IMG/VR virus record: IMGVR_UViG_3300031998_000511 | Location: 1-30,755 of that record | Length of the DNA: 30,755 nucleotides | Reading direction: 5' to 3' (one strand) | From: a virus | Shown: positions 3,537-20,902 of the stretch, piece by piece | How positions within the stretch are numbered: the first letter of the stretch is position 1 | Layout: the number at the start of each line of letters is the position of its first letter | Position numbers and translations under genes: made by a program | Notes under the pieces: model-generated | Seen by the model: the letters and a program-made list of their open reading frames with translations, nothing else | Databases searched by the model: none | Told to the model about the DNA's origin: nothing

Positions 3537-3550
3537 AAAAAACTAATTTA
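3537..3550 (+). promoter_or_regulatory. Motif A copy 1 (AAAAAACTAATTTA), candidate late promoter or RNA signal
   Basis: Exact 14-mer immediately after the terminator, 27 nt upstream of ATG 3578, followed by AGGGT. Confidence 0.5.
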
Positions 3551-3577
3551 AGGGTATAAACCGAAAAGGGGCTTAAA

Positions 3578-3814
3578 ATGGACAGAAACGAACAGAAACA
3601 GGCAGAAGCCGTTGAAGAAAAGGACTTTTTGACCGCTATCGTAGACTTTTTTGAAAAGCTGGCCGAAAAGTACGAATTTGACGAGAACGAACAGGCGGAG
3701 TTCCGTGAGATCCTGTTTGGTGGCGAGAACGCCCGCAACGCTGGCCCGATGTATGACGCCGAAGCAGTTGAAATGGTAGAAGATACCGAAGAACCCGAAA
3801 CCGAAGAGGACTAG
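3578..3814 (+). CDS. Hypothetical acidic protein
   Basis: 78-aa ORF with AAAGGGG upstream. It is strongly Glu/Asp-rich. Confidence 0.5.
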   Translation: MDRNEQKQAEAVEEKDFLTAIVDFFEKLAEKYEFDENEQAEFREILFGGENARNAGPMYDAEAVEMVEDTEEPETEED

Positions 3815-3818
3815 CAAG

Positions 3819-4076
3819 ATGGCAAGGCCCAAGAAAGCACAAGCCGAAGCGCCGAAGGCCGAAGCAACGCCCGAAGCCGTTGAAGCTGAAAAGGCGCCAG
3901 AAGCGCCCGAAACGCCGAAGGATTCCAATGTACCGAGCGAGGAACAAAACGCCCTTGAAACGCGCGTTAAGGCCCTTGAAACGATCGTTGCGAACCTTGG
4001 CAAGCGGGTTGCAGAATTGGAACGGGTAACGGCTTACCGCAAGCCCGTAACCAGCGCCGATATTTTAGGCTTGTAA
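3819..4076 (+). CDS. Hypothetical protein with a PEA-rich N-terminus and a coiled-coil C-terminus
   Basis: 85-aa ORF with AGAGGA upstream and a heptad-like segment, ALETRVKALETIVANLGKRVAELE. Confidence 0.5.
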   Translation: MARPKKAQAEAPKAEATPEAVEAEKAPEAPETPKDSNVPSEEQNALETRVKALETIVANLGKRVAELERVTAYRKPVTSADILGL

Positions 4077-4087
4077 TAAATAAATAG

Positions 4088-4114
4088 CGTTCACGCGGAA
4101 CGCATTAAAACGCG
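4088..4114 (+). promoter_or_regulatory. Motif B copy 1: conserved hairpin CGTTC-ACGCG-GAACG plus an AAAACGCG tail
   Basis: The 15-mer CGTTCACGCGGAACG is identical to 9321..9335. Both copies are followed by (c/t)A..AAAACGCG and then an SD and an ATG. Confidence 0.45.
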
Positions 4115-4122
4115 AGGGGCAA

Positions 4123-4233
4123 ATGGAATATTTGCAAAACATAAATTTTCCGTTTTTTGGGAAATTTTCGGCTTTTAACGGCTGTTTTACTGAATGTTGC
4201 CCCCCCTTTCTAAAGGGGGTTTTTTGTGCCTAA
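4123..4233 (+). CDS. Possible 36-aa leader ORF upstream of, and overlapping, the small-terminase start
   Basis: GAGGGG lies 4 nt upstream of ATG 4123, and the translation is MEYLQNINFPFFGKFSAFNGCFTECCPPFLKGVFCA. The ORF reads through the 4200..4225 hairpin. It is below the track cutoff and may be non-coding. Confidence 0.2.
   Translation: MEYLQNINFPFFGKFSAFNGCFTECCPPFLKGVFCA
4200..4225 (+). terminator. Terminator-like hairpin plus T6. Its 3' arm is also the SD of the small-terminase gene.
   Basis: CCCCCTTT (4202..4209) pairs with AAAGGGGG (4212..4219), followed by tttttt (4220..4225) and then GTG 4226. Confidence 0.45.
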
Positions 4234-4681
4234 AGTCAAAAATCCCGTTGGGAACCCGAATATTGTAGAAGCGGGCAAGAAAACACAGATTACGCCCGAA
4301 ATCGCAAACGAATACAGGCTGAAAGGGCTTGCAATTCGGCGCCATTTGACAGAACAGAAGAAAGTCTGGGAAACACCCGCCGACCTACCGAAAGAACAGG
4401 CCGAATTTTTCGCTATGTTCGGATTTGTAGGGCCGCGCCAGAAGCTCATTGACAATAAATATAAATTCGCGTACAAGGCGCTTAAGAAAGCCTATGACAA
4501 AGGCGACCTAAACAACATTATCAAGTTTTTCCAGATGTTAGGCTTGGATTGGGCGGCAGACGCGGCGCAATTTATGGCGGCTTTCAACGCGACTATAAAC
4601 AAGCCCGAAGAAACCGACAAGAACGAACCTGTTGAATTTGTCTTTACGAGAGTTGGCGCCGATGCGGAAAATACAAATTGA
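4226..4681 (+). CDS. terS: Putative terminase small subunit (GTG start)
   Basis: The position directly upstream of and overlapping terL, the size (151 aa) and the basic N-terminus (PKVKNPVGNPNIVEAGKKT) are typical of small terminases. The call rests on position and motif only. Confidence 0.5.
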   Translation: MPKVKNPVGNPNIVEAGKKTQITPEIANEYRLKGLAIRRHLTEQKKVWETPADLPKEQAEFFAMFGFVGPRQKLIDNKYKFAYKALKKAYDKGDLNNIIKFFQMLGLDWAADAAQFMAAFNATINKPEETDKNEPVEFVFTRVGADAENTN

Positions 4682-5954
4682 CTTTCTACCGCATCAAGAC
4701 CGCCTTTTTTTCAATAATTCACGAATAAAGGGGCTTTATTGCGGGCGCGGCGCTGGCAAATCGTTCTATATGATTACAAGCGCGGCTTGCGACCTTGTAC
4801 AAGGCTTGCGCGTCCTGTACTTTTGCCAGACGAACAGCGTAATGGAAGGCCAATTTTTGCCCTTCATCATAGAAACGCTTGAAAATTGGGGCTTTAGCCC
4901 GAAAGTCAACGAAAAGAAACATATTATTAGCTTGCCCAACGGCGGGAAGCTGTTTTATTTTTCCTATGAAAACTACAAAAAGAGCCGCGGCGCTACAAAG
5001 ATCCGCAAGATTTACTTTGACGAAATAGCGCTGGGGCCGAAGCCTTCACTTTTGTTTTCGGCGGTGGCGCCCTGTATGCGAGATTCGGGCGGCATTACCG
5101 AATTGATATTTGCCAGCACCCCGAACAAGGGTAGCGAATGGGATAAATGGGTAAAAAGCCTGAAGCCAGAAAAATTCGTTATTACGGGCGTCACGATGGA
5201 CGATAACCCGAAGGCAAGCGAGGAAGAAAAACAGCTTATCAAAGACCTTATTAGCGGCGATCCTAACTTTTTACGCCAAGAGTTCTACGGGGAAATTCTG
5301 GACGATGATTTAGCGTTTTGCGTATTGCACAGCGCCGACTTTCCGCAATTCCAGCAAAGCAGACGCGGCTTTGTTTCCATCGGTTGCGATTGCGCGGGCG
5401 AGGGGCGCGACAAGTTTATTTTTTCCGCCATTGACGAAAGCGGCATTTTGGAGCTGGTGGAAACAACGAAGGCCGACACACAGGCGCAATTTTCAATTGT
5501 ACGCGAATTGGTACACAAATACGATGCGCTGCAGATCGTAATAGACAATACGGGCGGTTTCGGCAAGGGGCTTTTTGACCTTTGCAAGCGGGCTTTCCTT
5601 GTCAACGGGCGGGAAGTTGAAGTTATCGGCGTAAACTTTGGCGAGGGCGCCGAAGATAAAAAGAGCTATGCCAACGCCCGCGCGGAAATGTACTTTGAGT
5701 TTGCCGAAGGTGTCAAGAACGGCTTTTTTGTTTCCAGCGAAGCGGCCCGCGAAGAATTGACGCATACAACTTACTTTAAGACCAATTCGGGCAAGGTTCA
5801 ATTGATCGACAAGGAAGAAATAAAGGCCCTTATTGGTCGTTCCCCCGACACGGCGGATTCGCTTTGCTTGGCTTGGTACAAGCGCAAGGAAATAAAGGCC
5901 CACGCTGACGCCCGACAGGTTGCGGCGGCGTTCCTAAAGGCTTTCGGGCATTAA
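4662..5954 (+). CDS. terL: Terminase large subunit
   Basis: Walker A is GLYCGRGAGKSF and Walker B-like is KIYFDEIAL. The C-terminal nuclease-type acidic motifs are IGCDCAGEGRDKF, VIDNTGGFG and SPDTADSL. I prefer ATG 4662 over the TTG at 4632. Confidence 0.9.
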   Translation: MRKIQIDFLPHQDRLFFNNSRIKGLYCGRGAGKSFYMITSAACDLVQGLRVLYFCQTNSVMEGQFLPFIIETLENWGFSPKVNEKKHIISLPNGGKLFYFSYENYKKSRGATKIRKIYFDEIALGPKPSLLFSAVAPCMRDSGGITELIFASTPNKGSEWDKWVKSLKPEKFVITGVTMDDNPKASEEEKQLIKDLISGDPNFLRQEFYGEILDDDLAFCVLHSADFPQFQQSRRGFVSIGCDCAGEGRDKFIFSAIDESGILELVETTKADTQAQFSIVRELVHKYDALQIVIDNTGGFGKGLFDLCKRAFLVNGREVEVIGVNFGEGAEDKKSYANARAEMYFEFAEGVKNGFFVSSEAAREELTHTTYFKTNSGKVQLIDKEEIKALIGRSPDTADSLCLAWYKRKEIKAHADARQVAAAFLKAFGH

Positions 5955-5966
5955 AAAACTAATTTA
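5953..5966 (+). promoter_or_regulatory. Motif A copy 2
   Basis: Exact AAAAAACTAATTTA overlapping the terL stop (TAA 5952..5954), followed by TGGGT. The ATGs at 5966 and 5972 follow directly. Confidence 0.45.
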
Positions 5967-6415
5967 TGGGTATGAAGCTAAAAAGTTTTTACTACGAGAA
6001 TTTCCAGCCGAAGCGCTTGAAGGGCGATTTGGTGGAACTTTGCGCCGATTTGGTAGTAAATCTTTTTACAGATGTTGGCTATTTTGTGGTAATTCTTAAG
6101 GCTGGGTTTCGCTGGAACGGCGCTAGCGTTCCTTGGCTTTTGCGCTGGTTTTTGCCGAATTGGAGCAAAAAAGACGATGGTTTTAACGTTTTGAGCGCCT
6201 TCCACGATGCCGCCTTTGCCAGCTACGGATTTAACGGGCTTTTGACCTTTGAACAATGCAACGATCTTTACAGGGGCGGATTGCGCGAAATAGGTTTTGG
6301 ACGCTTCAAGGCTTCCAGCGCCTGTTTTAGCGTTAACACCTTTGCAAAAAACCATTTTGGGCAAGACGAAAACAACATTAGGCATTTGTGCCAATGCGAA
6401 AGGATAAGCGGGTAA
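5966..6415 (+). CDS. DUF1353-like protein
   Basis: GFRWNGASVPWLLRWFLP...LSAFHDAAF resembles the DUF1353 core (GF.tDGaSiP ... HD). The start could be ATG 5966 or 5972. Confidence 0.5.
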   Translation: MGMKLKSFYYENFQPKRLKGDLVELCADLVVNLFTDVGYFVVILKAGFRWNGASVPWLLRWFLPNWSKKDDGFNVLSAFHDAAFASYGFNGLLTFEQCNDLYRGGLREIGFGRFKASSACFSVNTFAKNHFGQDENNIRHLCQCERISG

Positions 6416-6417
6416 CT

Positions 6418-8346
6418 ATGCAGAAATACACCGAAAAGGAACAGCAAGAAATTATAAAAGAATGTGGCGAATTTTTGCAAGATTCGTCTAACGCTTTCAA
6501 AGACGATGTAAAGCGACAGGTAGACCAGCTTGAAATGTTCGGCGGCAATTTCTGGACGGACAGCGTTTGCAAGACTTACCGCAGAACAAACAAGTTGCGC
6601 CCCAACTTGCATTTTTCCCATTGGGAAGTGTTACGTAACGCCGCAGTTAGCCCGTTTAGCGCTTCCCCTTGGCATATTGCGCTGGAAAATACCGAAAGCG
6701 AGAAAACAGAGATTGACAAGGGCGAAGAAAACGCCGCTACAACCAACGAAGAAACACAAAAGGAAATTGACAGCTACGAAGCGGATACAGATTGCAAGAC
6801 AGCCTACATTGAAGGTGTCGGGCGCGGCTTCATTTGTGGCGCTGGCTACTACCTTTTGGGCGTTGAAACGGACGAATTGACGGGCCAGAACAAGATTTGC
6901 GGCGAATTCGTGACGCGCCAAAATTCCGTTGCCTTTGACCCAAACGCAACCTCCGTTGACGGGAGCGATGCGGAACAGGGCGCAATTGTAAACTATATTT
7001 CGTTGACGAAGGCCAAGCGCCTTTATGGTAACGGCGTTGTGCCGCTGGACTATCCGAGCGTACAGCCTACGCTTACTTTCGTTGATATTGGGCAATGGCC
7101 AAACATTGTAAACAAGATCCAAATTGTAACTTATTACCGCAAAAAAATTATTGAAGTCAAGGTTGACGAAACCAAGACCGAAAAACGCACAATTGTAGAA
7201 TGGTTCAAGATTTGCGGAAACGCAATTGTTGATTCGGGCGAATTGCCGATTAGGTATATTCCCATTGTGCGCTTTGCTGGTTTCGCCACGTTCCGAAATG
7301 GCGAAGTTATCTATACGGGCATTATTGACAAGACATTTAGTTTGCAGTTGGGCATTAACATTGCCTATTCTACGATGGTGGAGCGCGCGGGCCGAAGCGT
7401 TAAGGCCAACTACATTACAAACGTTGATTCCGTTAACGGGCTTGATGCGTATTACAAGAAGCTAAACGAAGATGATAGCTTGTTAGTTATGTACAAGGGC
7501 GACAAACCGCCTATTCCCGTACAGGAAAGTTTCGTAACAAGCGACCTTTCCGAAATGATCGCGAACACCCGCAATTTGCTTTCCGATGTTGTCGGCATAC
7601 CGCTAACGGGCATTAACGGCATTAACGAAAGCAACAAGACCGCTACCGAAGTATTGCAACAGCAAGCCAACGCGGAAAGCAATGTTGCGAACATCTACAA
7701 TAACGCATACAAGGCAACGCGCACTATTGGCCGTATCGTAATACAGCTCATTACGGGCGGCGTTGACCTTAAATTTACGCTTGAAAACGGCCCCGCCATT
7801 ATTAGCCAGAATATGAAGAAACGGCAAGAATTGGCGATGGTTGCAAACCTGTTGCCCGACAACCTAAAGCCGCTTTTGGCGCTTTACTACGTTGACACGA
7901 TCAAGAGCGAACAAAGCAAGGAAATAAAGGCCGATATTATAGCCAACTTGCCGACCGACTTGAAGCTAGTTGGCGACCAGCCGACCGACCCCGCCGCTAT
8001 CCACGAATTGCGCCGTATGCAGGTTGTTTGCGATGGCTTGGCCGAACAGCTTGAAACCATCAAGGCCGAAAACGAAGAACTTAAGAAGCAATACGAAAGC
8101 GCCGAAATGAGCCTGTTAAATACCCGCGAACAGCGGGCGGACGATATGGAACGCTTTAGAATTTCGGAAACTAACAAAATGAACCTTGAAACGGCAAAGC
8201 TTGAAAGCCAGAACGCGAAGGCGGCGGCTGAACTTGCCATAAAGAACAAGGCCGTAAACGCCGATATGCAGAGGGCCGCGACAGAAGCGGAACAGGCGGC
8301 GGTTGATACGGCGGAAAAGATAGCGGGGGGCGAAAATGCAGTTTGA
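6418..8346 (+). CDS. Portal protein with a long C-terminal coiled coil
   Basis: About 640 aa, located after terL as in P22-like genomes. The last roughly 120 aa are heptad-rich (ELRRMQVVCDGLAEQLETIKAENEELKKQYE...), like the P22 portal barrel. Alternative in-frame starts lie at 6388 and 6394. Confidence 0.7.
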   Translation: MQKYTEKEQQEIIKECGEFLQDSSNAFKDDVKRQVDQLEMFGGNFWTDSVCKTYRRTNKLRPNLHFSHWEVLRNAAVSPFSASPWHIALENTESEKTEIDKGEENAATTNEETQKEIDSYEADTDCKTAYIEGVGRGFICGAGYYLLGVETDELTGQNKICGEFVTRQNSVAFDPNATSVDGSDAEQGAIVNYISLTKAKRLYGNGVVPLDYPSVQPTLTFVDIGQWPNIVNKIQIVTYYRKKIIEVKVDETKTEKRTIVEWFKICGNAIVDSGELPIRYIPIVRFAGFATFRNGEVIYTGIIDKTFSLQLGINIAYSTMVERAGRSVKANYITNVDSVNGLDAYYKKLNEDDSLLVMYKGDKPPIPVQESFVTSDLSEMIANTRNLLSDVVGIPLTGINGINESNKTATEVLQQQANAESNVANIYNNAYKATRTIGRIVIQLITGGVDLKFTLENGPAIISQNMKKRQELAMVANLLPDNLKPLLALYYVDTIKSEQSKEIKADIIANLPTDLKLVGDQPTDPAAIHELRRMQVVCDGLAEQLETIKAENEELKKQYESAEMSLLNTREQRADDMERFRISETNKMNLETAKLESQNAKAAAELAIKNKAVNADMQRAATEAEQAAVDTAEKIAGGENAV

Positions 8347-8830
8347 TAGCCAAGTTGGGCCGCAATTGACCCTAAACGCCCTGTTCAAGAACAGCGGGCG
8401 GGCCTTCAAGAACGCGGCGTTTATGCAGACGCCAGCGGAACACGAAAGGGCCATAAGGAAGTTTACAAAAGAGCGCGAAAGGCAATTTATACGGGCTGGA
8501 ATGACGCCCGCGCAAGTTGCCAACGCGAAGAAACGCGCCGAAGAATGGGCAAAGAACTATGACGAGCCGAAGAAAATAGAAAAGTATTGGAAAGGCGACC
8601 AAGAGCCGCGCCGACCTATCCAAATTTCTAGTTCTTTCATTGGCGGCGTTAGGATCGTTCCCAGCCTTGGCCTTGCCCGACTGAATTTAAACGGGCGTTC
8701 CTATTCGTATTCGTTGACGCCCGAAATGGTGGGCAAGATGATTACAAGCAACAGCCTTGGCAAGTTCTACAACGGGCGTATCAAGGCACAAACGGGGCTA
8801 ATGACCAAAAACAAAGCCTTGGGCTGGTAA
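8336..8830 (+). CDS. Hypothetical protein (head module)
   Basis: 164-aa ORF with GGGGGG upstream, overlapping the portal stop. No family is recognised. Confidence 0.5.
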   Translation: MQFDSQVGPQLTLNALFKNSGRAFKNAAFMQTPAEHERAIRKFTKERERQFIRAGMTPAQVANAKKRAEEWAKNYDEPKKIEKYWKGDQEPRRPIQISSSFIGGVRIVPSLGLARLNLNGRSYSYSLTPEMVGKMITSNSLGKFYNGRIKAQTGLMTKNKALGW

Positions 8831-8859
8831 ATATACCTAAAGACCAAATAAACCAACAG

Positions 8860-8890
8860 AAACCGCCCTAGAAAGGCGGTTTTCCTTTTT
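8860..8890 (+). terminator. Rho-independent terminator
   Basis: AAACCGCC (8860..8867) pairs with GGCGGTTT (8875..8882) around a ctagaaa loop, followed by tcctttttg. Confidence 0.8.
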
Positions 8891-8892
8891 GT

Positions 8893-9279
8893 GGTATGGT
8901 TGGAAGGGTAAGGGCAGAAACGGCCCCAGAACGCGCGTATTGTCGGGTACAATTTTGACGGAAAAAACGAATTGAGCAATAGGTAAGCAATTGCTTTTCA
9001 ATTGGTTTGTAATTGCTATGTGATTTTTTCACTTTCGGAAAGAAATTTTATAAAAAATCGTGAATGAAAGCGAAAAATTAAACAAAATGTTGAGTTTTTG
9101 AGCGAAAAACGCAGTTTTTCGTAATTAAGCAATTGCTTTGCTATTGCTTTGCAATAGGTAAGCTATTCTGTCTTATTGTCTATATTACTATTTTACTATC
9201 TATTTCTTTATTTTCTTTTGGTTCTTTTCTTTTTTTCTTTGCCAGTTCCGAAAAAAACTTTTTTATTGGAATTGTAGCC
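8893..9279. other. Long AT-rich non-coding region with palindromes, direct repeats and a polypyrimidine tract
   Basis: No ORF larger than a few codons on the + strand. AAGCAATTGCTT occurs at 8985..8996 and 9127..9138. CAATAGGTAAGC occurs at 8977..8988 and 9152..9163. CTATTGC-ttt-GCAATAG is at 9141..9157, AGCGAAAAA at 9069 and 9101, and a T/C tract at 9196..9240. Confidence 0.85.
9161..9240 (+). repeat. About 80-bp intergenic element, paralogous to 24121..24200
   Basis: The two elements are colinear. CTTATTGTCTATAT (9172..9185 = 24132..24145) and the 23-mer TTTTCTTTTGGTTCTTTTCTTTT (9211..9233 = 24171..24193) are exact, and roughly three quarters of positions match overall. Confidence 0.85.
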
Positions 9280-9293
9280 AAAAAACTAATTTA
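9280..9293 (+). promoter_or_regulatory. Motif A copy 3
   Basis: Exact AAAAAACTAATTTA followed by TGGTT, 71 nt upstream of the preferred scaffold start. Confidence 0.5.
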
Positions 9294-9320
9294 TGGTTAA
9301 AGGTGGAATTAACCGCCTTT

Positions 9321-9364: not shown

Positions 9365-10396
9365 ATGGCAATGACTACCGAAGAAGTAAACGAATACCTT
9401 GCACAGCAGAAAGCGGCACAGGAAAACGGAACTGAAACGGAAACCAATAACCCGCAAGGGAAAGAACCCGAACCAAAGACGGAAACGGCGGCTTCGCAAA
9501 CCGCAACGGCTGACGATGGCGAAGGCGAAGGCCCCGACAACCCACCCAGCGGCGCTGACGCTGGCGGCGAAGACGGAAGCGAAACCAAAGGCGGAACGCC
9601 CGAAGGTTCCGAACACTTGGCGGCTGGATCGGAAGGCGAACCCGATACAGAGAAAGACAAAAAGCCTACGGCGGAAGAACGTTGGGCAAAATCTTTCCGA
9701 AAAGAAAAAGACAAGCGGAAACGGCAAAACCAGCAATACCAAGCCGAGATTGAACGGCTAAAGCGTGAAAACGCCGAATTGAAGGGCAAGTTGGGCAATG
9801 GCGATTTCAAGGCTGACAAAGACAGCGTTTCGGCCCTTGTTAAGATGCAGACTAACGAAAACGAAATTTCGCGTTTGCAGACGGAACAGGTTAACAACCA
9901 GATGGCCGATGATATGGCGGAAAATGAACGCCGCGTAAATCTTTGTTTCCCAGACGAGAAAGACCGCCAAATTTACGCGCAGTTGCTCCAAAATTCGGGT
10001 TCGGCTTTCGTTGAGAAATTGGACGCCGCAGATCCCGAAGGGGTTATTTTGGGGTGTCTAGACGATTGCGAAATTTCGCCTATCGTATTGCGGGTTCTTA
10101 TGACGCGCCCCGCCTTCTTGAATGACATTTTGTCCAAGAAAACGAGGCACGGAAAGGAAGTTGCTTTTGACCAGCTTGTCAACCAATGCAAGGTAGCGGA
10201 CAAGATTATCCGAGCCAAGCAGAAGGAAAAAACGGCGCAAGCAAAGGACACCCTGAAGGCGGGCGCAAGGGCTGGTTTGCAGAACATCAAGCCGACAGGC
10301 CGACAAGCCAACAAAGGCGAAGGCGGCGGCGGGAACGTTGTAAAGAACGAAGCCTATTGGAACCAATTTTTGGGCGAACACCCGCGCGGGCGTTAA
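9365..10396 (+). CDS. Scaffolding protein (candidate)
   Basis: It lies between the portal block and the coat gene. It is acidic and low-complexity, with coiled-coil segments (QQYQAEIERLKRENAELKGKL). I prefer ATG 9365 (GGAG 10 nt upstream) to ATG 9293, which sits inside motif A. Confidence 0.55.
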   Translation: MAMTTEEVNEYLAQQKAAQENGTETETNNPQGKEPEPKTETAASQTATADDGEGEGPDNPPSGADAGGEDGSETKGGTPEGSEHLAAGSEGEPDTEKDKKPTAEERWAKSFRKEKDKRKRQNQQYQAEIERLKRENAELKGKLGNGDFKADKDSVSALVKMQTNENEISRLQTEQVNNQMADDMAENERRVNLCFPDEKDRQIYAQLLQNSGSAFVEKLDAADPEGVILGCLDDCEISPIVLRVLMTRPAFLNDILSKKTRHGKEVAFDQLVNQCKVADKIIRAKQKEKTAQAKDTLKAGARAGLQNIKPTGRQANKGEGGGGNVVKNEAYWNQFLGEHPRGR

Positions 10397-10427
10397 GTCT
10401 AAAAACCATTTTCAATAGGGGTTATCT

Positions 10428-12928: not shown

Positions 12929-14506
12929 ATGGCTAAAAAGTTTATAACTAACATTTGCGGCGGCGTAAAGCGTAGCGATATTAGGAAAGTTGGCCTTTCT
13001 GACGCTGTAAATATGTACCTTGAAGAAAAAGACCCTACAGAACAGGCTTTTACGCTCATAATGCGTTCTATTGACGGGTGCAGTACATATTGCACCCCGA
13101 AGGGCGAACCGCGCGGAATGTTCAAAGTTTCCCGCGCCTACGATGGCGAAGGATCCCCAGAAGTACAAAAGACATACGGCGTATGGGGCGAAAAGCTTTA
13201 CTTGCTTGAAGAAAACAACGCAATTGAAATTGGAACGCTGGCGACCAAAAGCGGCGTTTGCCATTTTTGCGAAACGGGCGGTTATGGTTCCGCGCACCCG
13301 CATTTAATCATTGTTGACGGAATAAATGTTTACGCCCTTAATACGGGCGTTTCCGTTGTCAACCAGCGCCAGCAATTTTTAGATCACGGCACAATTAAGT
13401 TGCCGTTGCGAGTAAACACAAACAATGTGTTTATCAAGCCGACCCATTGCGCGTATCTTTACGGGTATCTAGTTGTAAACGATTCTGGAACAGATGCGTT
13501 TTACACAAGCTACCAATACCCGTTTGAAGCTTACCCGACAACCGACCCGAAATATTACGATATTTTCCGCGTCAATACGGCGGCGTTCCTTGATTACGGC
13601 TTTGTGACCTATTCCGAATGGCAACCAGACAACACCCTTGCTTTGTTTGCCAACGGATCACGACTTTTTACTTTCGGATCGCGTTCTTTCCAAGTATTCC
13701 AATACAACAACGATGTAAACAACCCTTTCAACAGCCCCGATACGGCGGCGCAAAACATAGGCATAAAGGCTGTAAATTCGCTTTGTGGCCTTGGTTCTGT
13801 TGTTTGCTGGCTTGGCGGTTCCGATGTTGGAAACAATGGCGTATATGTGAACAGGGGCGGCGTTGAATGTGAAAGAATATCTACGATTGAAATTGAAAAC
13901 ATCATTGAAGATATTGGGGTACAGACTGACGCAATAGGCCAGATGTGGCAAGAAAAGCAACATACGTTCTATGCGCTCACTTTCCCCTACGGCAACGTTA
14001 CTTTGGTCTATGACTTTTTAACGGGCGCTTGGCACAAGCGGGCAACGCTTGGCAAGATGAACGCTTTGGAAAAATGGCGCTACAATTTCGCGACAATGAA
14101 CGAAAACGGCAAGATTCTTTTTGCCGACATTGACGCTTGCGTTGTTCTGGACAAGAACAAGTTTACAGAACACGATGGCAACTTGATTTTGAAAAAGCGC
14201 GTTGGCGGCGTTATCCTTTCCGACTATATGAATTTTGTTTGTGATTATGTGCAGATTTTCACGAACAACGGACAGAACAACGCCATTGCCGAAAACGCAA
14301 AAATCACGATCCGTTATTCGTTTGATGGCGCCACGTTCTCAACTATTGAACAGGTGCCAATTGGCCGAATAGGTCAATACGATTACGAAACGATGTTCTG
14401 GATAGGCGAATTTGGAAAATTCTTGACGCTTGAAATTAGCTGTTCCGAACCTTGCCCGTTTGCCCTTATGGGTATTCAATTTGGCGGCGATGCAATGGAG
14501 TTCTAG
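12929..14506 (+). CDS. P22 gp10-like tail hub / packaged-DNA stabilisation protein (candidate)
   Basis: 525 aa. The serial motifs (WGEKLYLL..., TFGSRSFQVFQY, ERISTIEIENIIED, TLVYDFLTGAWHKR, the C-terminal IRYSFDG...LTLEISCSEP.PFALMGIQF) occur in the same order as remembered P22 gp10 landmarks. Confidence 0.55.
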   Translation: MAKKFITNICGGVKRSDIRKVGLSDAVNMYLEEKDPTEQAFTLIMRSIDGCSTYCTPKGEPRGMFKVSRAYDGEGSPEVQKTYGVWGEKLYLLEENNAIEIGTLATKSGVCHFCETGGYGSAHPHLIIVDGINVYALNTGVSVVNQRQQFLDHGTIKLPLRVNTNNVFIKPTHCAYLYGYLVVNDSGTDAFYTSYQYPFEAYPTTDPKYYDIFRVNTAAFLDYGFVTYSEWQPDNTLALFANGSRLFTFGSRSFQVFQYNNDVNNPFNSPDTAAQNIGIKAVNSLCGLGSVVCWLGGSDVGNNGVYVNRGGVECERISTIEIENIIEDIGVQTDAIGQMWQEKQHTFYALTFPYGNVTLVYDFLTGAWHKRATLGKMNALEKWRYNFATMNENGKILFADIDACVVLDKNKFTEHDGNLILKKRVGGVILSDYMNFVCDYVQIFTNNGQNNAIAENAKITIRYSFDGATFSTIEQVPIGRIGQYDYETMFWIGEFGKFLTLEISCSEPCPFALMGIQFGGDAMEF

Positions 14507-14509
14507 GCG

Positions 14510-14755
14510 ATGATTGAAAAGATTACACCTTGGACACCTACAACGGAACTTTCCGAAGCCTTGCGCGGTTCTTACGGAAAAGAAGTAACCGAGAATTACG
14601 CTTGGGCTGTTTTCGGGAACGTGCTAATAGTCAAGGCTTTCAAGGATTGCAATTTTACACCGCCTGTAGCTTGCTACAATTTAAACTACCTTGATGGCGG
14701 AGAATTTAACGGAACTTTAACGGCGGGCCAAGCCGCAATTGGAATTTTGAAGTAA
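14510..14755 (+). CDS. Hypothetical virion-module protein
   Basis: 81-aa ORF with GGAG upstream. No family is recognised. Confidence 0.5.
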   Translation: MIEKITPWTPTTELSEALRGSYGKEVTENYAWAVFGNVLIVKAFKDCNFTPPVACYNLNYLDGGEFNGTLTAGQAAIGILK

Positions 14756-14765
14756 GGGGGCTGTT

Positions 14766-15488
14766 ATGGATGACTTTTCGGGAATTGGCGAAGCAATAGC
14801 GGGCGGAATTGGCGGTATCGCCAATATCGGTTTTGGTATTTATGACCGCCAACAGCAGAGAAAGAAAGACCGCGAAGCAAGAAAGCGCGTCCAACAGGTT
14901 ACGGAGCAGACCGCAAGCGACTACAACCAAATGGTTAATATGCTTGACAAATGGCGTAAAGACCAGATCAACACGGCAACGCCAGAAATGGTAAGCGAAT
15001 ATTCCCGCTTGCTTTCCAGCTTTGACCCTTCCGAATATACGGCGGATATAGAAAAGTTTGAATTTACGGACGAAAGCGGCAAGCCGCTAACGCGCGAAGA
15101 TTTCTTGGCGAAGAACCGCGAACAGATCTTGCAGAGCGTGACCGACCGAATACAGCACAGCGCGGCGGGAGCTGGCCTTGGACGCGGAACGGGCGCCGCC
15201 TTGGGCATTGCCGAAGGTGTAGCGGCCAAAGACGAAGAATTGCAGAAGATGGCAAACGAACAATACCTTGGGGAACGCCAGCAAGCTTACAGCGAATGGA
15301 GCAACTATATTGACAAGATGCAACGCAAGCTGGACGCTGAAAGGGCGGGAACAGAAAGCCGAATTTCTATGCTTGGCGGTGCAATAGGCCAGCAACAGCA
15401 ACAGGAAAGCGACTATATGGCAGACTTGCTTTCTTTGCTGGAAAACAAGCGCGCGACAATCAACCAAGCGAACCTTGCTTTGGTATAA
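14766..15488 (+). CDS. Internal/ejection protein candidate (Gly-rich hydrophobic N-terminus, coiled-coil body)
   Basis: It begins IGEAIAGGIGGIANIGFGIY, then runs Gln/Glu-rich helices. Its position corresponds to the P22 gp14/gp7/gp20/gp16 block. Confidence 0.4.
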   Translation: MDDFSGIGEAIAGGIGGIANIGFGIYDRQQQRKKDREARKRVQQVTEQTASDYNQMVNMLDKWRKDQINTATPEMVSEYSRLLSSFDPSEYTADIEKFEFTDESGKPLTREDFLAKNREQILQSVTDRIQHSAAGAGLGRGTGAALGIAEGVAAKDEELQKMANEQYLGERQQAYSEWSNYIDKMQRKLDAERAGTESRISMLGGAIGQQQQQESDYMADLLSLLENKRATINQANLALV

Positions 15489-15500
15489 CGGGGGTTTATT

Positions 15501-16490
15501 ATGGCTAGAGTTTACAACAGCACGCGTTTAATGCTTGACCCTAACTTTATCCTTTCGGCGCGAAGGGCCGCAGACGAGCGCGAAGCCGCCGCGCGTGAAA
15601 GCCGCCGCGACATTGCAAAGGGCATTAACCAGACTTTGGGCGCCATTGGTGGCGGCATTGACTACGCATTGCGTAATATGGCAAAGAGCGACCGCCGCGA
15701 CATTATGGCGAACGCACCAGACATTGATGATCCCGAATACAAAGCCGCTGTTGAACGTTTCGTTGAAACGGGAGATTTAAGCGGAATTAACGCTTACCGA
15801 CAAATCAAGGAAGGCCGCGAGAGAATGGCCCGCGAGGAAGCCGCCCGCGAAAAGGAACTTGGAATTAGGAAGCGCGAAGCCGAAACGATGGCACAGAGAA
15901 CGGCGCTTGAAGATGCGAAAATCAAGGAAGGATTGGCCGAGAAAGCAAGGCTGGATTTACAGGAAGCCGAAATTGAATACAAAAACGCTATAACGGGCGC
16001 CGACAAGGAACGCGCAAAAGTCAACATCAACAGGGCATTGCTTGACCTTAAGAGCGCTGGCAAAGATGTTAGCGGATATGTGTTGCCAGACGAAAAGCCA
16101 AGCGGCGATATTGGCGGAGCTGGTACCGAAGGCGCCGCCGATGATGGCAAATCCATTAGGGCGCAAATAAACGATTTCAAAGCAAGGCTTAACGCTGGGT
16201 TCAACACGAAGGCGGAACAGGCCGCGTTTATTGAAGAAGTGAAGGCAAAGCGCGAAGGCTTGAAGGGCGCCGAAGTTGACGAATTTGTCAAGCTCATTGA
16301 CGATGCGCGAAAGGTAAAGCCCGAAGAAAAGAAGGCCGAAGAAAAGAAGGCGGCACAGAAAAAGAAAGCCGACCTTTACGCCGAAAAGAGCAAGAGCGCC
16401 GCCGAATTTTTCGTTTGGTTCAATGGCCTTAACGAAAAAGACCAAGCAGATTACGAAGCCGCATTTAAAGAAGTTTACGGGGGCAAATGA
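15501..16490 (+). CDS. Internal/ejection protein candidate (charged, coiled-coil)
   Basis: 329 aa, Ala/Glu/Lys/Arg-rich. The call is positional. Confidence 0.4.
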   Translation: MARVYNSTRLMLDPNFILSARRAADEREAAARESRRDIAKGINQTLGAIGGGIDYALRNMAKSDRRDIMANAPDIDDPEYKAAVERFVETGDLSGINAYRQIKEGRERMAREEAAREKELGIRKREAETMAQRTALEDAKIKEGLAEKARLDLQEAEIEYKNAITGADKERAKVNINRALLDLKSAGKDVSGYVLPDEKPSGDIGGAGTEGAADDGKSIRAQINDFKARLNAGFNTKAEQAAFIEEVKAKREGLKGAEVDEFVKLIDDARKVKPEEKKAEEKKAAQKKKADLYAEKSKSAAEFFVWFNGLNEKDQADYEAAFKEVYGGK

Positions 16491-18181
16491 TGGCCGAACA
16501 AGGTTACAAGCAGAAAGTTTTAAAAGAGATTCTTTCTTTGTCTAGTGTTCCGTCCTTGACGGATCGTCAAAAGAAGTTTCTAAAGAATTTCGCTAATGAC
16601 CTTGCAAAGAAAGACGAAAGCGAAATTAGAAAATCCATCTATGCGACCTTTAGACAGGGCGGATTGCGCGGCGGAGAGATTCGCGGGCTTTTGCCTATCT
16701 TGCCCGATTCTAGCGAATTGAGAAAAACGGCCCTTGGAAAGAAGCCCGAATACAAGAAAGGCGGCAAGGAAAAGTTGGCCGAAATGTTCGCTGACGAAGG
16801 CGGCGCCAACGTGATAGACCAGCGCACAAAAGAATTCTGGATTAACAACCCGAATTTGGACGATGCGAAAATTGAAGCGGTGGCGAAGGCCAACGGGCTT
16901 ACCAAACAGGAACTTTACAAGCGCCTTGAAGAAGAAAGCAACAAGGAAACGCGCCGACAGATCGCGAAGGGCGAAGAATACGGCGGCTGGTTTGACAGCC
17001 CGAAGGCTTTTGGCTCCAACCTTGCGGGAGCCGTTACGGGGCTTGTTTTCCCGCGTAGCGTTGAAAAGGTGGAAGCTGGCGAAGATGTGAAGCCCGAAGA
17101 TGTGGGCTTGGACGTTGGCGAAAACTTGATATATACTTTGAACCCCGTTAGCGCTGGCGCTGGCCTTGGCTTGCGGGCGCTTGGAAAGTTTGCGCCGAGA
17201 GCCGCCGAAAAGGTGGGTTCCGTTGGTTCAAGGATTGCAAAAACGGGTGTAAGGAACCTTACTATTGGAACGGGCCTTAACGCCTTTGCAAATCCTATCC
17301 TGTTTGAAACGGCGGACGCCATTATTTACGATGATGGCCCGCGCGCGAAATTCAATACTACCGATGTGATAGCGGGCGGCGTAACTAACTTGGCAGTTCC
17401 TACTTTCTTGCGTTCTAGGCTTATGAGCGCTGGCAAGTTTGGCGGCGTTAAGGGCGGGCGCACAGATACAAAGGCATTGGAAAAGGCTTTTGGGGAAGGG
17501 GAGCAAGCCAAGATTCCTACGTTTGGCGAATTTACAAGCGACTTGGAAAAGAAGCTTTCACGCAAGAAAGAACTTGCCATAAAGGCCGAGAACAGGGGCG
17601 GCGTTGGCAACGTTGAAGCGCATTTGACGCCAGCGGAGCTAAAGGAATTTCAGAGCGTAAAGCCTATTTACGAAATTGGAACCGAAATAAACGAAGCCGC
17701 CGAAGGCATAGCAAAGATCATTGGAAACGAAGGCTTGCCGCTTGACGAAGCCACAAGAAAATATTTTTCTGGATTGCCGAAAGAAAAGCGCTATTCAATA
17801 CAGCTTGCGAACCGCGAATTGGGCGATGCGGCCCCATTCACGTTTGTAAAAGACGAATTCGCGCCGACAAACAATTTGCTTTACGCTATCAAGAATTCAA
17901 GTTGGGCGCCTGTACTTGAAGAAGCCGCCTTTATGACACCCGAACTGCAGAAGGCCGCGCAAAAGAGCGCAACGCGCCAAATGCTGTTGGGCGGTGCCGT
18001 AAATTGGGGTGCAAACAAGTATGGCGATACCGAACAGGGCGGCGTTGTAGGGCTTTTCCCCTTCTACGATGTGAAGGAACAGAGAAAGAAGGACAAGGAA
18101 GAACAGGAAAAGGCCGAAGAACTTGAAGCGATGCAAGGTTATATTTTCCCGTTTGAGAACGAAGAAAGCGAGGGTTTATAA
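16487..18181 (+). CDS. Internal/ejection protein candidate (large)
   Basis: 564 aa, with an ATGA start/stop overlap with the upstream gene. The call is positional, and no catalytic motif is recognised. Confidence 0.4.
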   Translation: MMAEQGYKQKVLKEILSLSSVPSLTDRQKKFLKNFANDLAKKDESEIRKSIYATFRQGGLRGGEIRGLLPILPDSSELRKTALGKKPEYKKGGKEKLAEMFADEGGANVIDQRTKEFWINNPNLDDAKIEAVAKANGLTKQELYKRLEEESNKETRRQIAKGEEYGGWFDSPKAFGSNLAGAVTGLVFPRSVEKVEAGEDVKPEDVGLDVGENLIYTLNPVSAGAGLGLRALGKFAPRAAEKVGSVGSRIAKTGVRNLTIGTGLNAFANPILFETADAIIYDDGPRAKFNTTDVIAGGVTNLAVPTFLRSRLMSAGKFGGVKGGRTDTKALEKAFGEGEQAKIPTFGEFTSDLEKKLSRKKELAIKAENRGGVGNVEAHLTPAELKEFQSVKPIYEIGTEINEAAEGIAKIIGNEGLPLDEATRKYFSGLPKEKRYSIQLANRELGDAAPFTFVKDEFAPTNNLLYAIKNSSWAPVLEEAAFMTPELQKAAQKSATRQMLLGGAVNWGANKYGDTEQGGVVGLFPFYDVKEQRKKDKEEQEKAEELEAMQGYIFPFENEESEGL

Positions 18182-20629
18182 ATGCGTAACTTTGACAATT
18201 ACGAACAGATAACCGACAACGAAGGCAACTTGCTTGTTGGCAAGCTGGTTTTTTGCCGTAAGGGTACAACTACGCAAGAAACAATCTACGCTTGGGATAG
18301 CGAACATAACGAATATGTGGCTATAAATCCCGTTGTCTACATCAACGCCAACGGGCGCCCCGAAAATCAAATTTACCTTGGCGATACCGATTACACAATA
18401 TATGTATTCAAGTATATAGGCAACGGCGAAATGGATCTTGACGCGGAACCCGAAAATTGGCTGGCGCAATATTCGTTCAATAACCTTTACTTAACCTTTG
18501 AAATTGACATAAAGACCGACAGCCCGACCCTTATAGCAAATATGGCGGAGCTTGAAGCGACCGACCCCGCAAACGTTGGCCTTGTCAACGGGAAGGCGCT
18601 TGTTTGCCTTGGCGGTTACAATGCGCTTGGCGATTGCCCGCCCGTTTTCTACGTTTGGGATAACGCCAGCACGAAAACGGCAAACGGCGTTGACATTGTG
18701 GCCGTTACGGGTATTTCCGTTGGCCGCTGGTTGCTTGTCAATACGTTTACCGAAACGGGCTTTGATGTTCGTCACGCTGGGTGCTTTGCGGCGCCTACAA
18801 CGGGCGAAACGAACATTAACCAAAGTTACGCTATCCAGCGGGCCGACACTTACGCCGTAAAATACGGGCTTAAGCTGGTGTTCCCAGACCTTTTTGACGA
18901 TACATATAGCTATTACCTGTTGACAAACCTAATTGTAAATAGCGAAGTTGTCGCGGCTGATGGCGTAAAGCTTATTTCGGACACAAGCGCGAACCTTAAG
19001 AACGTTTCCGAAGAAAACCTTAAAAAGAAGGTTCCGTTTGTCTATCACGATGGAACATATACGGGAACTTGGAGCGTTACGGGCGACACGATTAGAACGG
19101 GCTATTTTGAGAACGCCGAAACGGGTAGCAACACCAATTGGCCACCGACTATCGTAGCAAACAAAAAGTACATTTACGATGCGTCCTTTAATTGCGATGG
19201 CGGTATTGACCCCATAATTGCGGTTAGCAACATTGATATAGAATTTGTCTTGCTTCTGGAAAACGAAATTTACAGCCTTACCAATTGCAAGATTGAGAGT
19301 AAAGGAAAAATCAAGCGCCATTGCTATTTTAACAATTGCGAAATCAAGGGTACGTTCTTTGATTCTTCGTTGACCGCAAGGGATATGGCCGACAATTCTT
19401 TTACTGGTTGTAGATCGTCTATTGACACTTGGGGAAGCGTTGAAAAATTCGTTGTCTACAAGGCATATAACGGCGACCGCTGGCTAGACCTTAACGGGAA
19501 AAATTGCAGTTTGGATTTGTCCAGCTACGGCGGCGGCAACTATTACCCGTTCCCGTTCCTTAAGATTACAAACGCGACATTTTCCAGCGTTACAACTTTC
19601 CCCGTTGATAAGCACGGAGTAAAGGGAACGTTCCTAACGCTTGAAAACGTTTCAATGGCTGGTTTGGAACTTTCGACCAATACGGCCATTACTAGCTTTA
19701 TCTTAAAAAATTGCAATATAAACATCGTCCAAGAAAACAGCGGAACTTTGCCTAATGCCGTATTCAAGGCGCAAGGCTCTACAATTTCGGGCGATGCGTT
19801 GCAAGTAAAGACTTTTGAAATTAACAATTGCAATATCAAAAACGCCATTGGCAACAATTCGGCAAGCGCAACGGCAACGGGCATTGTTGAAGATTCCATT
19901 ATTGACGGGCATTGTATAGACTTTTTCTCTACAAGCACGTTTAACGTGATTTTCAAGAATAACGTATTGCGTAACGGCGGGCAATTGGGCTTTTATGGAT
20001 CGGGAGCAAACCAAAGCTTTGTTTCTACCATTATCGCCAACAATTCTGTTGAAGATGGCCCGCGCGACTTTATCGTTAACGGCGTTAGTTCTTGGAATGT
20101 TTCAAATATCGGTAGCTACGAATACAAGGGCAATACGGGTATTTTGAAGGGCGAAGATAAGATAAAGCTTGTCTTGCGTATTCCGTATTATACTTACGGC
20201 GCCACGATTCCAGACGGAACTTTGCGCTATATCCAGCAGAGAAGCACGAACAGCCCTTATTGCGACCTTGTAGGAGTTACGATTGGGGATTTGCTGTTTT
20301 CTTTTGGCGAAAATACGCAACACGATATTTTGGCCGAAACGGAGCCTAAATACAATACAACTTTAACAGAGCCTGAATATTTGCGCGAATTTTCCGATTC
20401 TGGAACCTTTGTAAACAGCGATACTTACAAAAATGTATGTGGCGCAATATGTACGGCGATCTATGACGCTGGCGTTGTTGATACGAAGGGCGTTTTTGAC
20501 GGAACGTTTGGCGGTTACGATTGCCTTGTTGTTACTCATAGCGGTATGAGCGATGGCGACTTGTGCGACCTTATCTTGAACGTTGAGAAGATTTACAGGG
20601 CGGAAGCTACAGGGGGGCTTGTGAAATGA
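18182..20629 (+). CDS. Tailspike with a predicted right-handed beta-helix
   Basis: 815 aa. The N-terminal anchor-like motif is DNEGNLLVGKLVF. The central region shows Asn/Cys ladder-like periodicity (NCKIES..., NCEIKG..., NCNINIV..., NCNIKNAIGNN..., NNVLRNGG, ANNSVEDG), typical of pectate-lyase-fold spikes. Confidence 0.6.
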   Translation: MRNFDNYEQITDNEGNLLVGKLVFCRKGTTTQETIYAWDSEHNEYVAINPVVYINANGRPENQIYLGDTDYTIYVFKYIGNGEMDLDAEPENWLAQYSFNNLYLTFEIDIKTDSPTLIANMAELEATDPANVGLVNGKALVCLGGYNALGDCPPVFYVWDNASTKTANGVDIVAVTGISVGRWLLVNTFTETGFDVRHAGCFAAPTTGETNINQSYAIQRADTYAVKYGLKLVFPDLFDDTYSYYLLTNLIVNSEVVAADGVKLISDTSANLKNVSEENLKKKVPFVYHDGTYTGTWSVTGDTIRTGYFENAETGSNTNWPPTIVANKKYIYDASFNCDGGIDPIIAVSNIDIEFVLLLENEIYSLTNCKIESKGKIKRHCYFNNCEIKGTFFDSSLTARDMADNSFTGCRSSIDTWGSVEKFVVYKAYNGDRWLDLNGKNCSLDLSSYGGGNYYPFPFLKITNATFSSVTTFPVDKHGVKGTFLTLENVSMAGLELSTNTAITSFILKNCNINIVQENSGTLPNAVFKAQGSTISGDALQVKTFEINNCNIKNAIGNNSASATATGIVEDSIIDGHCIDFFSTSTFNVIFKNNVLRNGGQLGFYGSGANQSFVSTIIANNSVEDGPRDFIVNGVSSWNVSNIGSYEYKGNTGILKGEDKIKLVLRIPYYTYGATIPDGTLRYIQQRSTNSPYCDLVGVTIGDLLFSFGENTQHDILAETEPKYNTTLTEPEYLREFSDSGTFVNSDTYKNVCGAICTAIYDAGVVDTKGVFDGTFGGYDCLVVTHSGMSDGDLCDLILNVEKIYRAEATGGLVK

Positions 20630-20898
20630 AGGTCTTTTTAGAGCTTATAGCCAAGTATGGCGGCGCAAGCGGGCTTATTGCCGCGTTTTGCGTTTACATC
20701 GCTTGCGCCAACGGCGTAGACAAGGCGAAGGAAAGCACCCAGCAGAACTACAAGTTGTTTGAATACCGCGTTTTGACGCTGGAATCGCAACAGAAGGAAA
20801 CGGCGGCGCAATTCGGGGAGATACAGAAGGCGCTTTTAAACATCAATGTTTCTATTTCAAGGATTGAAACGCTTTTGGAAAAAGCGCCAAAAAACTAA
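20626..20898 (+). CDS. Small protein with one TM segment and a coiled coil (holin-like or tail-associated, undecided)
   Basis: A hydrophobic GGASGLIAAFCVYIACANGV segment followed by a heptad region. It overlaps the tailspike stop. Confidence 0.4.
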   Translation: MKVFLELIAKYGGASGLIAAFCVYIACANGVDKAKESTQQNYKLFEYRVLTLESQQKETAAQFGEIQKALLNINVSISRIETLLEKAPKN

Positions 20899-20902
20899 TT
20901 TA
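20889..20902 (+). promoter_or_regulatory. Motif A copy 5
   Basis: Exact AAAAAACTAATTTA spanning the stop TAA at 20896..20898, followed by AGGTT, 19 nt upstream of ATG 20922. Confidence 0.5.

Follow-up and report, generated by a model that had tools for sequence, protein, structure and literature searches.

A candidate gp55-type late switch in a 30.6-kb uncultured phage genome: five identical -10-like elements and a region-2-only sigma-like gene

The IMG/VR virus record IMGVR_UViG_3300031998_000511, whose 30,755 nucleotides (nt) are the whole stretch of DNA analyzed here (the window), contains a 14-mer, AAAAAACTAATTTA, that stands at the head of five blocks of late genes, referred to below as cassettes. 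From its sequence context we consider this element very probably a promoter. We further think it likely, from sequence comparison and a structure model, that it is a late promoter read by the product of an open reading frame (ORF) at 11753-12223, which looks like a highly diverged sigma factor of the phage T4 gp55 type, with region 2 only. A preliminary description of this DNA had proposed that the 14-mer is a single-block, AT-rich late promoter of the gp55 type with no -35 partner and had singled out the ORF as one to test for co-occurrence with it. The promoter reading is supported computationally by 114 sites, by the relatives that carry them and by the ORF family, which sequence profiles and fold tie to gp55 and sigma region 2.

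Exactly five exact copies of the 14-mer are present, at 3537, 5953, 9280, 12192 and 20889, all on the + strand, which carries all genes of the window. Dinucleotide-preserving shuffles gave an expectation of 0.01 copies and never reached five, bearing out the count and positions first reported. Allowing one mismatch added no copies, and two to three mismatches gave 24 matches against 18 expected, which is the chance level. The 3′ extension WGKKT (W, A or T; K, G or T) described earlier follows the motif in 5/5 copies. All five lie inside the late region (3,537-24,088; 20.5 kb), the first of them directly 3′ of the early terminator, and the distance from each copy to the first start codon of its cassette is 5-71 nt. 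The proposed division of the late region into functional units also stands, with each copy heading one cassette:

3537-3550, + strand: putative late promoter copy 1 (AAAAAA followed by CTAATTTA), at the early/late border; predicted +1 A3556.
3578-5954, + strand: cassette 1 under copy 1 (packaging), with small proteins, a terS-like ORF and terL.
5953-5966, + strand: putative late promoter copy 2; predicted +1 A5972, the A of the DUF1353 ATG.
5972-8830, + strand: cassette 2 under copy 2, with DUF1353, the portal (6418-8346) and ORF 8336-8830.
9280-9293, + strand: putative late promoter copy 3; predicted +1 A9299, with a conserved 5′-terminal hairpin next to it.
~9365-11651, + strand: cassette 3 under copy 3, scaffold and coat.
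12192-12205, + strand: putative late promoter copy 4; predicted +1 A12211, at the Shine-Dalgarno sequence AGAGGA.
12227-20898, + strand: cassette 4 under copy 4, with the adaptor, a gp10/Hc3-like protein, tail and injection proteins, a beta-helix tailspike (18182-20629) and ORF 20626-20898.
20889-20902, + strand: putative late promoter copy 5; predicted +1 A20908.
20922-24088, + strand: cassette 5 under copy 5, with ORF 20922-21443 and the tail fibre (21632-24088).

As had been noted, copies 2, 4 and 5 overlap the ends of upstream ORFs, which read the motif in three different frames. The first two A of copy 2 belong to the terL stop codon TAA (5952-5954), the final 32 nt of ORF 11753-12223 contain copy 4, and bases 8-10 of copy 5 form the stop codon of ORF 20626-20898. 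Copies 1 and 3 are non-coding. Comparison with relatives corrected several gene starts, to ATG 6418 for the portal, ATG ~9365 for the scaffold and ATG 5972 for DUF1353; given the last two, the ATG made by the final A of copies 2 and 3 is not a start codon.

To follow the motif beyond the window, we scanned IMG/VR and the JGI metagenomes with portal, terL and sigma profiles and obtained 148 related loci (numbered with the prefix L), mostly from rumen, gut and digester sources as judged by sample id, which were merged into 82 contig groups. From these we drew a close-clade set of 27 non-redundant sites (portals 66-97% identical) and a family-wide set of 114 non-redundant head-of-gene sites (terL down to 27% identity, GC content 30-55%). 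Every relative with a portal at least 66% identical has the motif [AG]AA[AC][AT]ACTAATTT[AG] at equivalent gene junctions. The 27 close sites, numbered from the C of CTAATT, carry 1.3-2.0 bits at positions -6 to +6 and 1.1 bits at +7, about 0-0.4 bits across almost the whole upstream flank, and a secondary peak at +13 and +15. Whether relatives with the same gene order keep the motif had been proposed as a check, and it is kept both at syntenic and at permuted cassette heads. The site orthologous to copy 1 is present in L001, L002, L008, L003, L009, L011 and L023, and nothing other than the motif is conserved at this early/late border. Where DUF1353 is missing (L003, L009, L010, L011 and L023), the motif lies 20-41 nt ahead of the portal ATG, and the homologue of ORF 20922-21443 is also motif-headed in L014 and L015.

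In more distant clades (portal 42-49% and terL 27-41% identical; GC 30-55%) just the core CTAATTW is kept, again upstream of cassettes, with the clade-specific 3′ extensions CTAATTATT..., CTAATTATTATATAA, CTAATTTTTAT and CTAATTTCT. The A-tract 5′ of CTAATT is invariant in the window clade and specific to it. The consensus of the 114 family sites is a.aaCTAATTWt...TAaA, that is, a core CTAATT[AT][TA] plus T and A at positions 12 and 13. Information is close to zero upstream of -4 relative to the C, and at the position expected for a -35 element it is zero across the 114 sites. The motif was not found in the most distant portal relatives (39% identical: L004, L020/L033).

Terminators near the copies had also been pointed out in the preliminary description. 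Three intrinsic terminators are relevant here:

3503-3536, + strand: strong intrinsic terminator at the end of the early operon (stem 3503-3528, T-tract to 3536), abutting copy 1.
8859-8891, + strand: intrinsic terminator at the end of the portal cassette, followed by ~390 nt of non-coding DNA up to copy 3.
11691-11718, + strand: strong intrinsic terminator 3′ of the coat gene (12-bp stem, T-tract).

Copy 1 is, as stated, directly behind its terminator, and L009 and L011 have a terminator-like hairpin and T-tract just upstream of their first late promoter as well. It is true that copies 3 and 4 lie downstream of terminators (8859-8883 and 11691-11718), only loosely so, at ~400 and ~470 nt. Family-wide, 6/114 sites are directly 3′ of a terminator, compared with 24/1155 controls, and we therefore rejected a terminator immediately upstream as a rule; nearness to a terminator is a feature of the first late promoter alone.

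The bases 3′ of the motif bear on where transcription would begin. With the C counted as 0, T12 and A13 are conserved, A13 being present in 69% of sites overall and 94% of the CTAATTTA class. We infer an anatomy in which the C is at -13, a -10-like hexamer TAATTW occupies -12 to -7, a 6-nt discriminator follows and T(-1)A(+1) marks the start, so that the core CTAATTW spans approximately -13 to -7. As far as sequence can tell, a T-A at this conserved spacing from the C is what a bacterial -10 element followed by its start site would show. In several relatives the Shine-Dalgarno sequence begins only 5-7 nt after CTAATT; the start must then lie within ~12 nt, so CTAATT itself would be the -10-like element. 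Initiation at A13 would have consequences for individual copies. The transcripts of copies 4 and 5 would begin at their own Shine-Dalgarno sequences, and copy 2 would give a leaderless AUG; DUF1353 could also be read from upstream transcripts. The 5-nt gap between copy 2 and ATG 5972 had been seen as a problem for a promoter. This difficulty may dissolve, since the conserved A13 is the A of that ATG, with the leaderless mRNA as a prediction from the sequence.

The scaffold promoter provides a further indication of the start site:

9299-9320, + strand: predicted 5′-terminal stem-loop of the scaffold/coat mRNA (AAAGGUGG-AAUUAA-CCGCCUUU), a hairpin conserved at scaffold promoters.

At 11/12 such sites from six clades, the hairpin begins at +1 to +5 of the predicted transcript, and its stems differ between clades (GGCGG/CCGCC, GGGCGG/CCGUCC, GCGAC/GUCGC, GCGUAAC/GUUACGC, GUCGG/CCGAC). 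A structure kept despite differing stems makes sense only if the 5′ end of the RNA is at that point. Stem-loops at the 5′ terminus are known to stabilize bacterial mRNAs.

The candidate reader of the motif is encoded between the coat terminator (11691-11718) and copy 4, behind a promoter element of another kind:

11753-12223, + strand: putative gp55-like sigma gene, region 2 only, 156 amino acids; proposed CTAATTW reader, from profiles, fold and co-occurrence with the motif.
11721-11729, + strand: canonical extended -10 element TGTTATATT, which is TGnTATATT, ahead of the sigma-like gene; proposed host-sigma promoter.

The ORF has the sequence pattern of sigma region 2, and iterated hidden Markov models (HMMs) tie it to proteins of 150-170 amino acids in 63 loci. 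A nine-member family alignment compared with PDB sequences had sigma-H region 2.2-2.4 as its top match (E 0.016), and the extracytoplasmic function (ECF) factor SigK was also found. Two homologues match annotated families: that of L014 matches PHROG 234, "late sigma transcription factor" (E 3.4e-8), and that of L017 matches PHROG 1740, "RNA polymerase sigma factor". Using hhalign, the window clade aligned with a distant clade at 96% probability (E 2.9e-9), and the whole family aligned with six gp55 sequences (T4, Aeromonas, Vibrio, cyanophage, PhiW-14 and Moby) at 74% probability (E 2.8e-5) over 92 co-linear columns. A deep search with the window-clade profile found only 4 representative clusters. 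The AlphaFold model, built with 15 homologues, is all-helical (predicted local distance difference test, pLDDT, 75; predicted template-modelling score, pTM, 0.62). The best Foldseek match among 350,542 PDB chains was 7d7c_F, T4 gp55 in the late open complex (probability 0.97; template-modelling (TM) scores 0.48/0.54); many sigma factors follow, and they dominate the meaningful matches. The same comparison with BFVD placed the sigma-like factor of KPV15, a T4-like phage, second (probability 0.99). A Y-S-Y motif invariant in the family aligns with gp55 H95-A96-Y97, of which H95 and Y97 help to form the pockets into which the promoter bases at -9 and -12 flip (PMC7892883).

The element at 11721 is one of only four intergenic matches to TGnTAnnnT on the + strand. 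Distant relatives (L117, L127, L131, L136, L003 and L023) likewise have elements of the TG[CT]TATATT type ahead of the sigma-like gene, and in relatives the extended -10 reads TTGCTATATT or TGTTATTTT. With the exception of L017, the sigma-like gene is not headed by CTAATT. From the layout of the sequence, we propose that the terminator at 11691-11718 keeps scaffold-coat transcription from running into this gene. In L014, L015 and L017 the gene runs opposite to the late genes; in L017 it is headed on its own strand by CTAATTTA (11760, minus strand), an arrangement that suggests positive autoregulation in some lineages. Two local features of the gene were also observed. A terminator-like hairpin and T-tract at 11881-11906 lie within the coding sequence for RTPKMRRFLFLY, and may be incidental or an attenuator of sigma expression. 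Copy 4 encodes residues E-K-T-N-L, and 12192-12223 as a whole encodes the disordered C-terminal tail EKTNLCLEEF, whose loose likeness to beta-clamp-binding motifs is speculative.

Following homologues of ORF 11753-12223 together with the motif had been suggested as a check on the link between them. Cassette-heading CTAATTW sites are present in 35/35 contig groups that have the sigma-like gene, mostly 3-12 sites in each, while the reversed word used as a control has no sites in most of these groups. Well-covered relatives in which no sigma-like gene was found (L004 [23 of 25 kb], L045, L109, L088, L103, L072 and L020) showed no motif. The type of sigma also goes with the type of motif. The YSYC(L/M)(Y/F)CA subfamily pairs with an A-tract plus CTAATTT[AG] (4/4 groups), YSYAYR with CTAATTAT (12/12 groups) and YSY[FLA]FR with CTAATTTT (4/4 groups).

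We propose the following cascade. The host primary sigma factor would transcribe the early operon and, from the extended -10 at 11721, the sigma-like gene. The phage sigma would then join the host core RNA polymerase, read CTAATTW and fire the five identical promoters, one for each late cassette: packaging, DUF1353-portal, scaffold-coat, adaptor-tailspike and fibre. That this genome has two classes of promoter, and that the host-type one serves the sigma gene, gives the arrangement the logic of a cascade. The model predicts that the motif is an active promoter used late in infection, with the start sites given above, and that the sigma binds core polymerase and its sites.

Several observations weigh against the sigma-like protein as reader of a late promoter. 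On its own, the window protein has no match in Pfam or PHROGs, including none to Pfam Sigma70_r2, and the window-clade alignment alone did not reach the gp55 alignment (E 0.73), so the link to gp55 is transitive through distant relatives. The Foldseek E-values are weak (0.27 in PDB, 0.085 in BFVD), with TM-scores of about 0.5. Many groups with the motif and no detected sigma-like gene are partial contigs, and co-occurrence is therefore not strictly proven; the pairing of sigma subfamilies with motif subtypes could be explained by shared descent alone. W at -7 instead of an invariant T is unusual for a -10 element of the sigma-70 type. In L002, the predicted start gives a 2-nt leader ahead of the DUF1353 AUG, not a strictly leaderless mRNA. 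Finally, no gp33- or gp45-like genes were found in the complete genome, so that the activation mechanism of T4 could not be copied unchanged.

The lack of a database match for the window protein alone would also suit a different reader, a primary or alternative host sigma that uses the motif as a -10-only promoter, perhaps with a phage activator, leaving another role for ORF 11753-12223. TAATTT shares its A at -11 and its T at -7 with TATAAT. For some host sigma factors, E. coli sigma-S among them, a C at -13 such as that of the motif helps to determine selectivity. Possible activators are the early ORFs 1210-1527, with a weak sigma-region-4/YlxM-like helix-turn-helix (HTH), and 176-400, a winged-helix protein. 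Opposed to this, the core is invariant over phages with GC contents of 30-55%, suggesting different hosts, and yet has A or T about equally at -7. The early proteins are not conserved past the closest clades, the motif goes with the sigma-like gene in both its presence and its subfamily, and canonical TGnTATATT is used elsewhere in the same genomes. We consider a host sigma an unlikely reader of the motif.

The 14-mer could also act in the RNA, as a processing or stability site where a long late transcript is cut into cassette mRNAs. It is AU-rich, occurs on the sense strand only and lies just upstream of Shine-Dalgarno sequences, and none of the internal copies 2, 4 and 5 directly follows a terminator, in keeping with the rarity of such adjacency across the family. 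This fits poorly with copy 1 and its L009 and L011 orthologues, where little RNA would arrive from beyond the terminator directly upstream, and with an early/late border that needs at least one promoter and has no other conserved element to supply it. An RNase site would not be expected to co-occur and co-vary with a sigma-like protein, and the T-A at a fixed 12-13 nt suits start-site geometry. An RNA role thus seems very improbable to us.

We give equally little credence to the motif as an operator, overlapping an otherwise weak promoter, at which a conventional DNA-binding protein would activate or repress. The invariant, clade-specific A-tract 5′ of CTAATT could be a second contact, and some copies in relatives form the short palindrome CTAATtATTAG. 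The palindrome is not conserved, the window copies have no dyad symmetry, and no conserved regulator was found: tblastn searches and iterated HMMs of every early ORF stop at the closest clades, which speaks against a conserved early regulator, and a Pfam scan of 122 cluster representatives gave no sigma or activator family. ORFs 1210-1527 (the weak HTH) and 2233-2454 (the last conserved early gene) are possible accessory factors.

The arrangement of the cassettes themselves varies between lineages:

Window: packaging / DUF1353-portal / scaffold-coat(-sigma) / adaptor...tailspike / fibre.
L013/L014 and the large L085-type group: terL / adaptor-Hc3 / 14766...18182 / portal / scaffold-coat.
L021: portal / 18182-like / scaffold-coat.

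Every breakpoint of these permutations falls at a motif site, which is what a recombination boundary sequence for exchanging or reordering modules, with no transcriptional role, would produce; we hold this to be the least probable explanation, as strict orientation, a short fixed distance to starts, the downstream T-A and the 5′ hairpins are not needed for it, and microhomology is a by-product of short identical promoters. We instead read the permuted cassettes, from their sequences, as the outcome of recombination at short identical promoters and hence as a consequence of promoter function. The recombination boundary offered as an alternative in the preliminary description is in this respect partly right, as a secondary property of the motif and not as its main role.

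Other readings were tried and rejected. A Bacteroidota sigma-A promoter (-7 TAnnTTTG, -33 TTTG) was the first lead, from AAAAAACTAATTTG in L003, which fits TAnnTTTG. Only the CTAATTTG variants (17/114 sites) fit this -7 box, there is no -33 element, and a host that does without Shine-Dalgarno sequences is at odds with their pervasive presence (AAGGGG or AGGAG 6-9 nt before the ATG). An archaeal B recognition element (BRE) and TATA box, made of the A-tract and TAATTTA, would place the start ~24 nt downstream, past the Shine-Dalgarno sequence and ATG 5972, and the genes are like those of bacterial phages (SSB, ERF, P22-type portal). A -1 frameshift site, A AAA AAC, does not fit three overlapping ORFs in three frames with copies 1 and 3 non-coding. 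No phage-encoded RNA polymerase is present, the 815-amino-acid ORF 18182-20629 being a beta-helix-like tailspike with no polymerase motifs or matches. A -10 element further downstream, with CTAATT as an upstream element, was dismissed because of the Shine-Dalgarno sequences that start 5-7 nt after CTAATT in several relatives.

The window as a whole holds a complete genome. An exact 127-bp terminal direct repeat at 1-127 and 30629-30755 makes it a complete circular genome of 30,628 bp, and the gene order of the relative L002 shows the same junction of window end to window start. The early region runs from ~24,100 across this junction to 3,500 and contains a replisome organiser, a DNA methyltransferase, ERF, a winged-helix protein, SSB, DUF5675 and a PNKP-type phosphatase; the late region contains terL, DUF1353, a P22-type portal, scaffold, coat, adaptor, the gp10/Hc3-like protein, the beta-helix tailspike and the fibre. 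Most window genes are preceded by Shine-Dalgarno elements of the AAGGGG or GGGGG type. Megablast with the window gave no match, and no cultured relative was found. The portal and Hc3-like proteins are 20-25% identical to their counterparts in podophages of Proteobacteria, and the label "P22-like" used earlier suits the portal and head-completion genes and nothing beyond them. ERF is 48% identical to that of a Clostridium phage, the sole clue to the host. Two of the loci, L061 and L131, are IMGVR_UViG_3300028914_000264, another phage of the same family (terL 31% identical) whose contig happens to be just as long as the window, 30,755 bp, apparently by chance.

Several further repeats and compositional features were observed in the window. 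A 108-nt non-coding block is duplicated at 9126-9233 and 24086-24193 (76% identity; also 8972-9017). Both copies have 11-bp-periodic, iteron-like GCAATTGCTTT repeats, the sequence tcttattgtctatat and a CT-rich tract; one copy adjoins the replisome-organiser gene and the other is in the 534-nt gap ahead of promoter copy 3. The same architecture is found in L003 at 6645-6840. This block may serve as an origin or a regulator array, or may couple replication to scaffold/coat transcription. A 42-nt repeat, TTAGCGAATTTGAGCGAAAAAC(A/G)GCAATTTCAAGAAAAATTA, is found at 26499-26540 and 27330-27371 (98% identity), upstream of two early genes, with a partial copy near 9100, and might act in early or middle regulation. 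GGCTGGACA, in some cases with one base changed, lies 0-7 nt ahead of ATG 24358, 24965, 25894, 27465 and 29608, at the starts of five early genes and of no late gene, and may be an early-specific translational signal or operator. At 27805-28896, ~40 tandem 18-bp units encode a hexapeptide-repeat protein, whose relatives match the YdcK beta-solenoid and bactofilin families and have strong PHROG matches of unknown function. Over 22000-24000, the C-terminal half of the fibre gene, GC content is 31-35% compared with a genome mean of 46%; the fibre protein (21632-24088) is 28% identical to tail fibres of Acinetobacter and Klebsiella phages, and the low-GC half is probably a recently acquired receptor-binding module.

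We can tentatively picture a wider system, at somewhat less than even chances: a minimal gp55-type switch with no clamp or gp33, consisting of one 156-amino-acid, region-2-only sigma and an 8-14-bp promoter, used by podophages that have genomes of ~30 kb, infect anaerobic bacteria of gut, rumen and digesters and form a large, uncultured family, in which promoter-headed late cassettes are movable units reshuffled at the promoter sequence. If this is true, gp55-type late transcription is not peculiar to T4-like and other very large myoviruses, and small podophages also use a portable two-part module, a small sigma with its -10-only promoter. The window would then be a compact model (30.6 kb, five identical promoters, one sigma) for what a region-2-only sigma needs to open a promoter and for how it can be enough to recognize one, and the three sigma subfamilies with their three motif subtypes offer a natural series for sigma-promoter co-evolution. 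For the annotation of viral dark matter, the motif and the sigma gene serve together as markers of late cassettes, in no fewer than 35 contig groups assembled from IMG/VR and metagenome contigs. The permuted cassettes suggest a way in which identical promoters may shape modular phage genome evolution.

Promoters of T7 are 23 bp long and are read by a single-subunit phage RNA polymerase, and in T7-like phages promoters are conserved within a clade and diverge between clades along with polymerase specificity. As with the class II and III promoters of these phages, the copies in the window are near-identical, co-oriented and placed directly before gene blocks, some of them overlapping the end of the preceding gene. 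Unlike T7, an RNA polymerase gene was not found in the complete genome, where the largest ORFs are the tail fibre and the beta-helix tailspike. The predicted anatomy resembles that of E. coli sigma-S-type extended -10 or -10-only promoters, with C(-13), a hexamer, a 6-nt discriminator and a purine start, but the hexamer is TAATTW, not TATACT or TATAAT, and the proposed sigma is phage-encoded and has no regions 3 and 4. Like RinA, ArpU and Ltr of phages of Gram-positive bacteria and like lambda Q, the system would be a phage-encoded switch for packaging and morphogenesis genes, RinA being the late switch that turns these genes on (PMC3152322). Those regulators act at one promoter upstream of terS to give one long late operon, in contrast to the five promoters of the window, and the window has no match to RinA-, ArpU-, Ltr- or Q-type families and no upstream activator site.

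The closest parallel is with T4. T4 late promoters have a -10-like block and no -35 element and are recognized by gp55. This highly diverged sigma uses its region-2 homology domain to capture flipped bases of the non-template strand, and it alone supports basal late transcription, which gp33 and the sliding clamp gp45 activate (PMC7892883, PMC2988020). With every sizeable ORF of the complete genome compared with Pfam and/or PHROGs, there was no match to a DNA polymerase, clamp, clamp loader or gp33; the phage may still have a gp33 analogue that has diverged very far, or may use the clamp of its host. The T4 sequence is TATAAATA where the core here is CTAATTW, to which the window clade adds its invariant A-tract. 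Unlike in T4, the genome is a 30.6-kb podovirus-type one with a P22-like portal, and the sigma gene is located within the late region, preceded by a terminator and an extended -10 of its own. A tblastn search located gp55 homologues in 2004 phage records, and among 40 rows spread over the ranking the complete genomes are all at least 131 kb; a literature search for this motif or for gp55-like factors in small phages returned nothing relevant. What seems new here is that a late switch of gp55 type has a novel promoter specificity and occurs in a family of small phages that is itself new and apparently large. In common with T4, it has one AT-rich, -10-like block of ~8 bp and lacks a -35 element, and it has many identical copies before late and structural genes, and a phage-encoded, highly diverged candidate sigma of ~150-185 amino acids that has only the region-2 homology domain, resembles gp55 in profile and fold, and carries an invariant aromatic motif aligned with the base-pocket residues of gp55.

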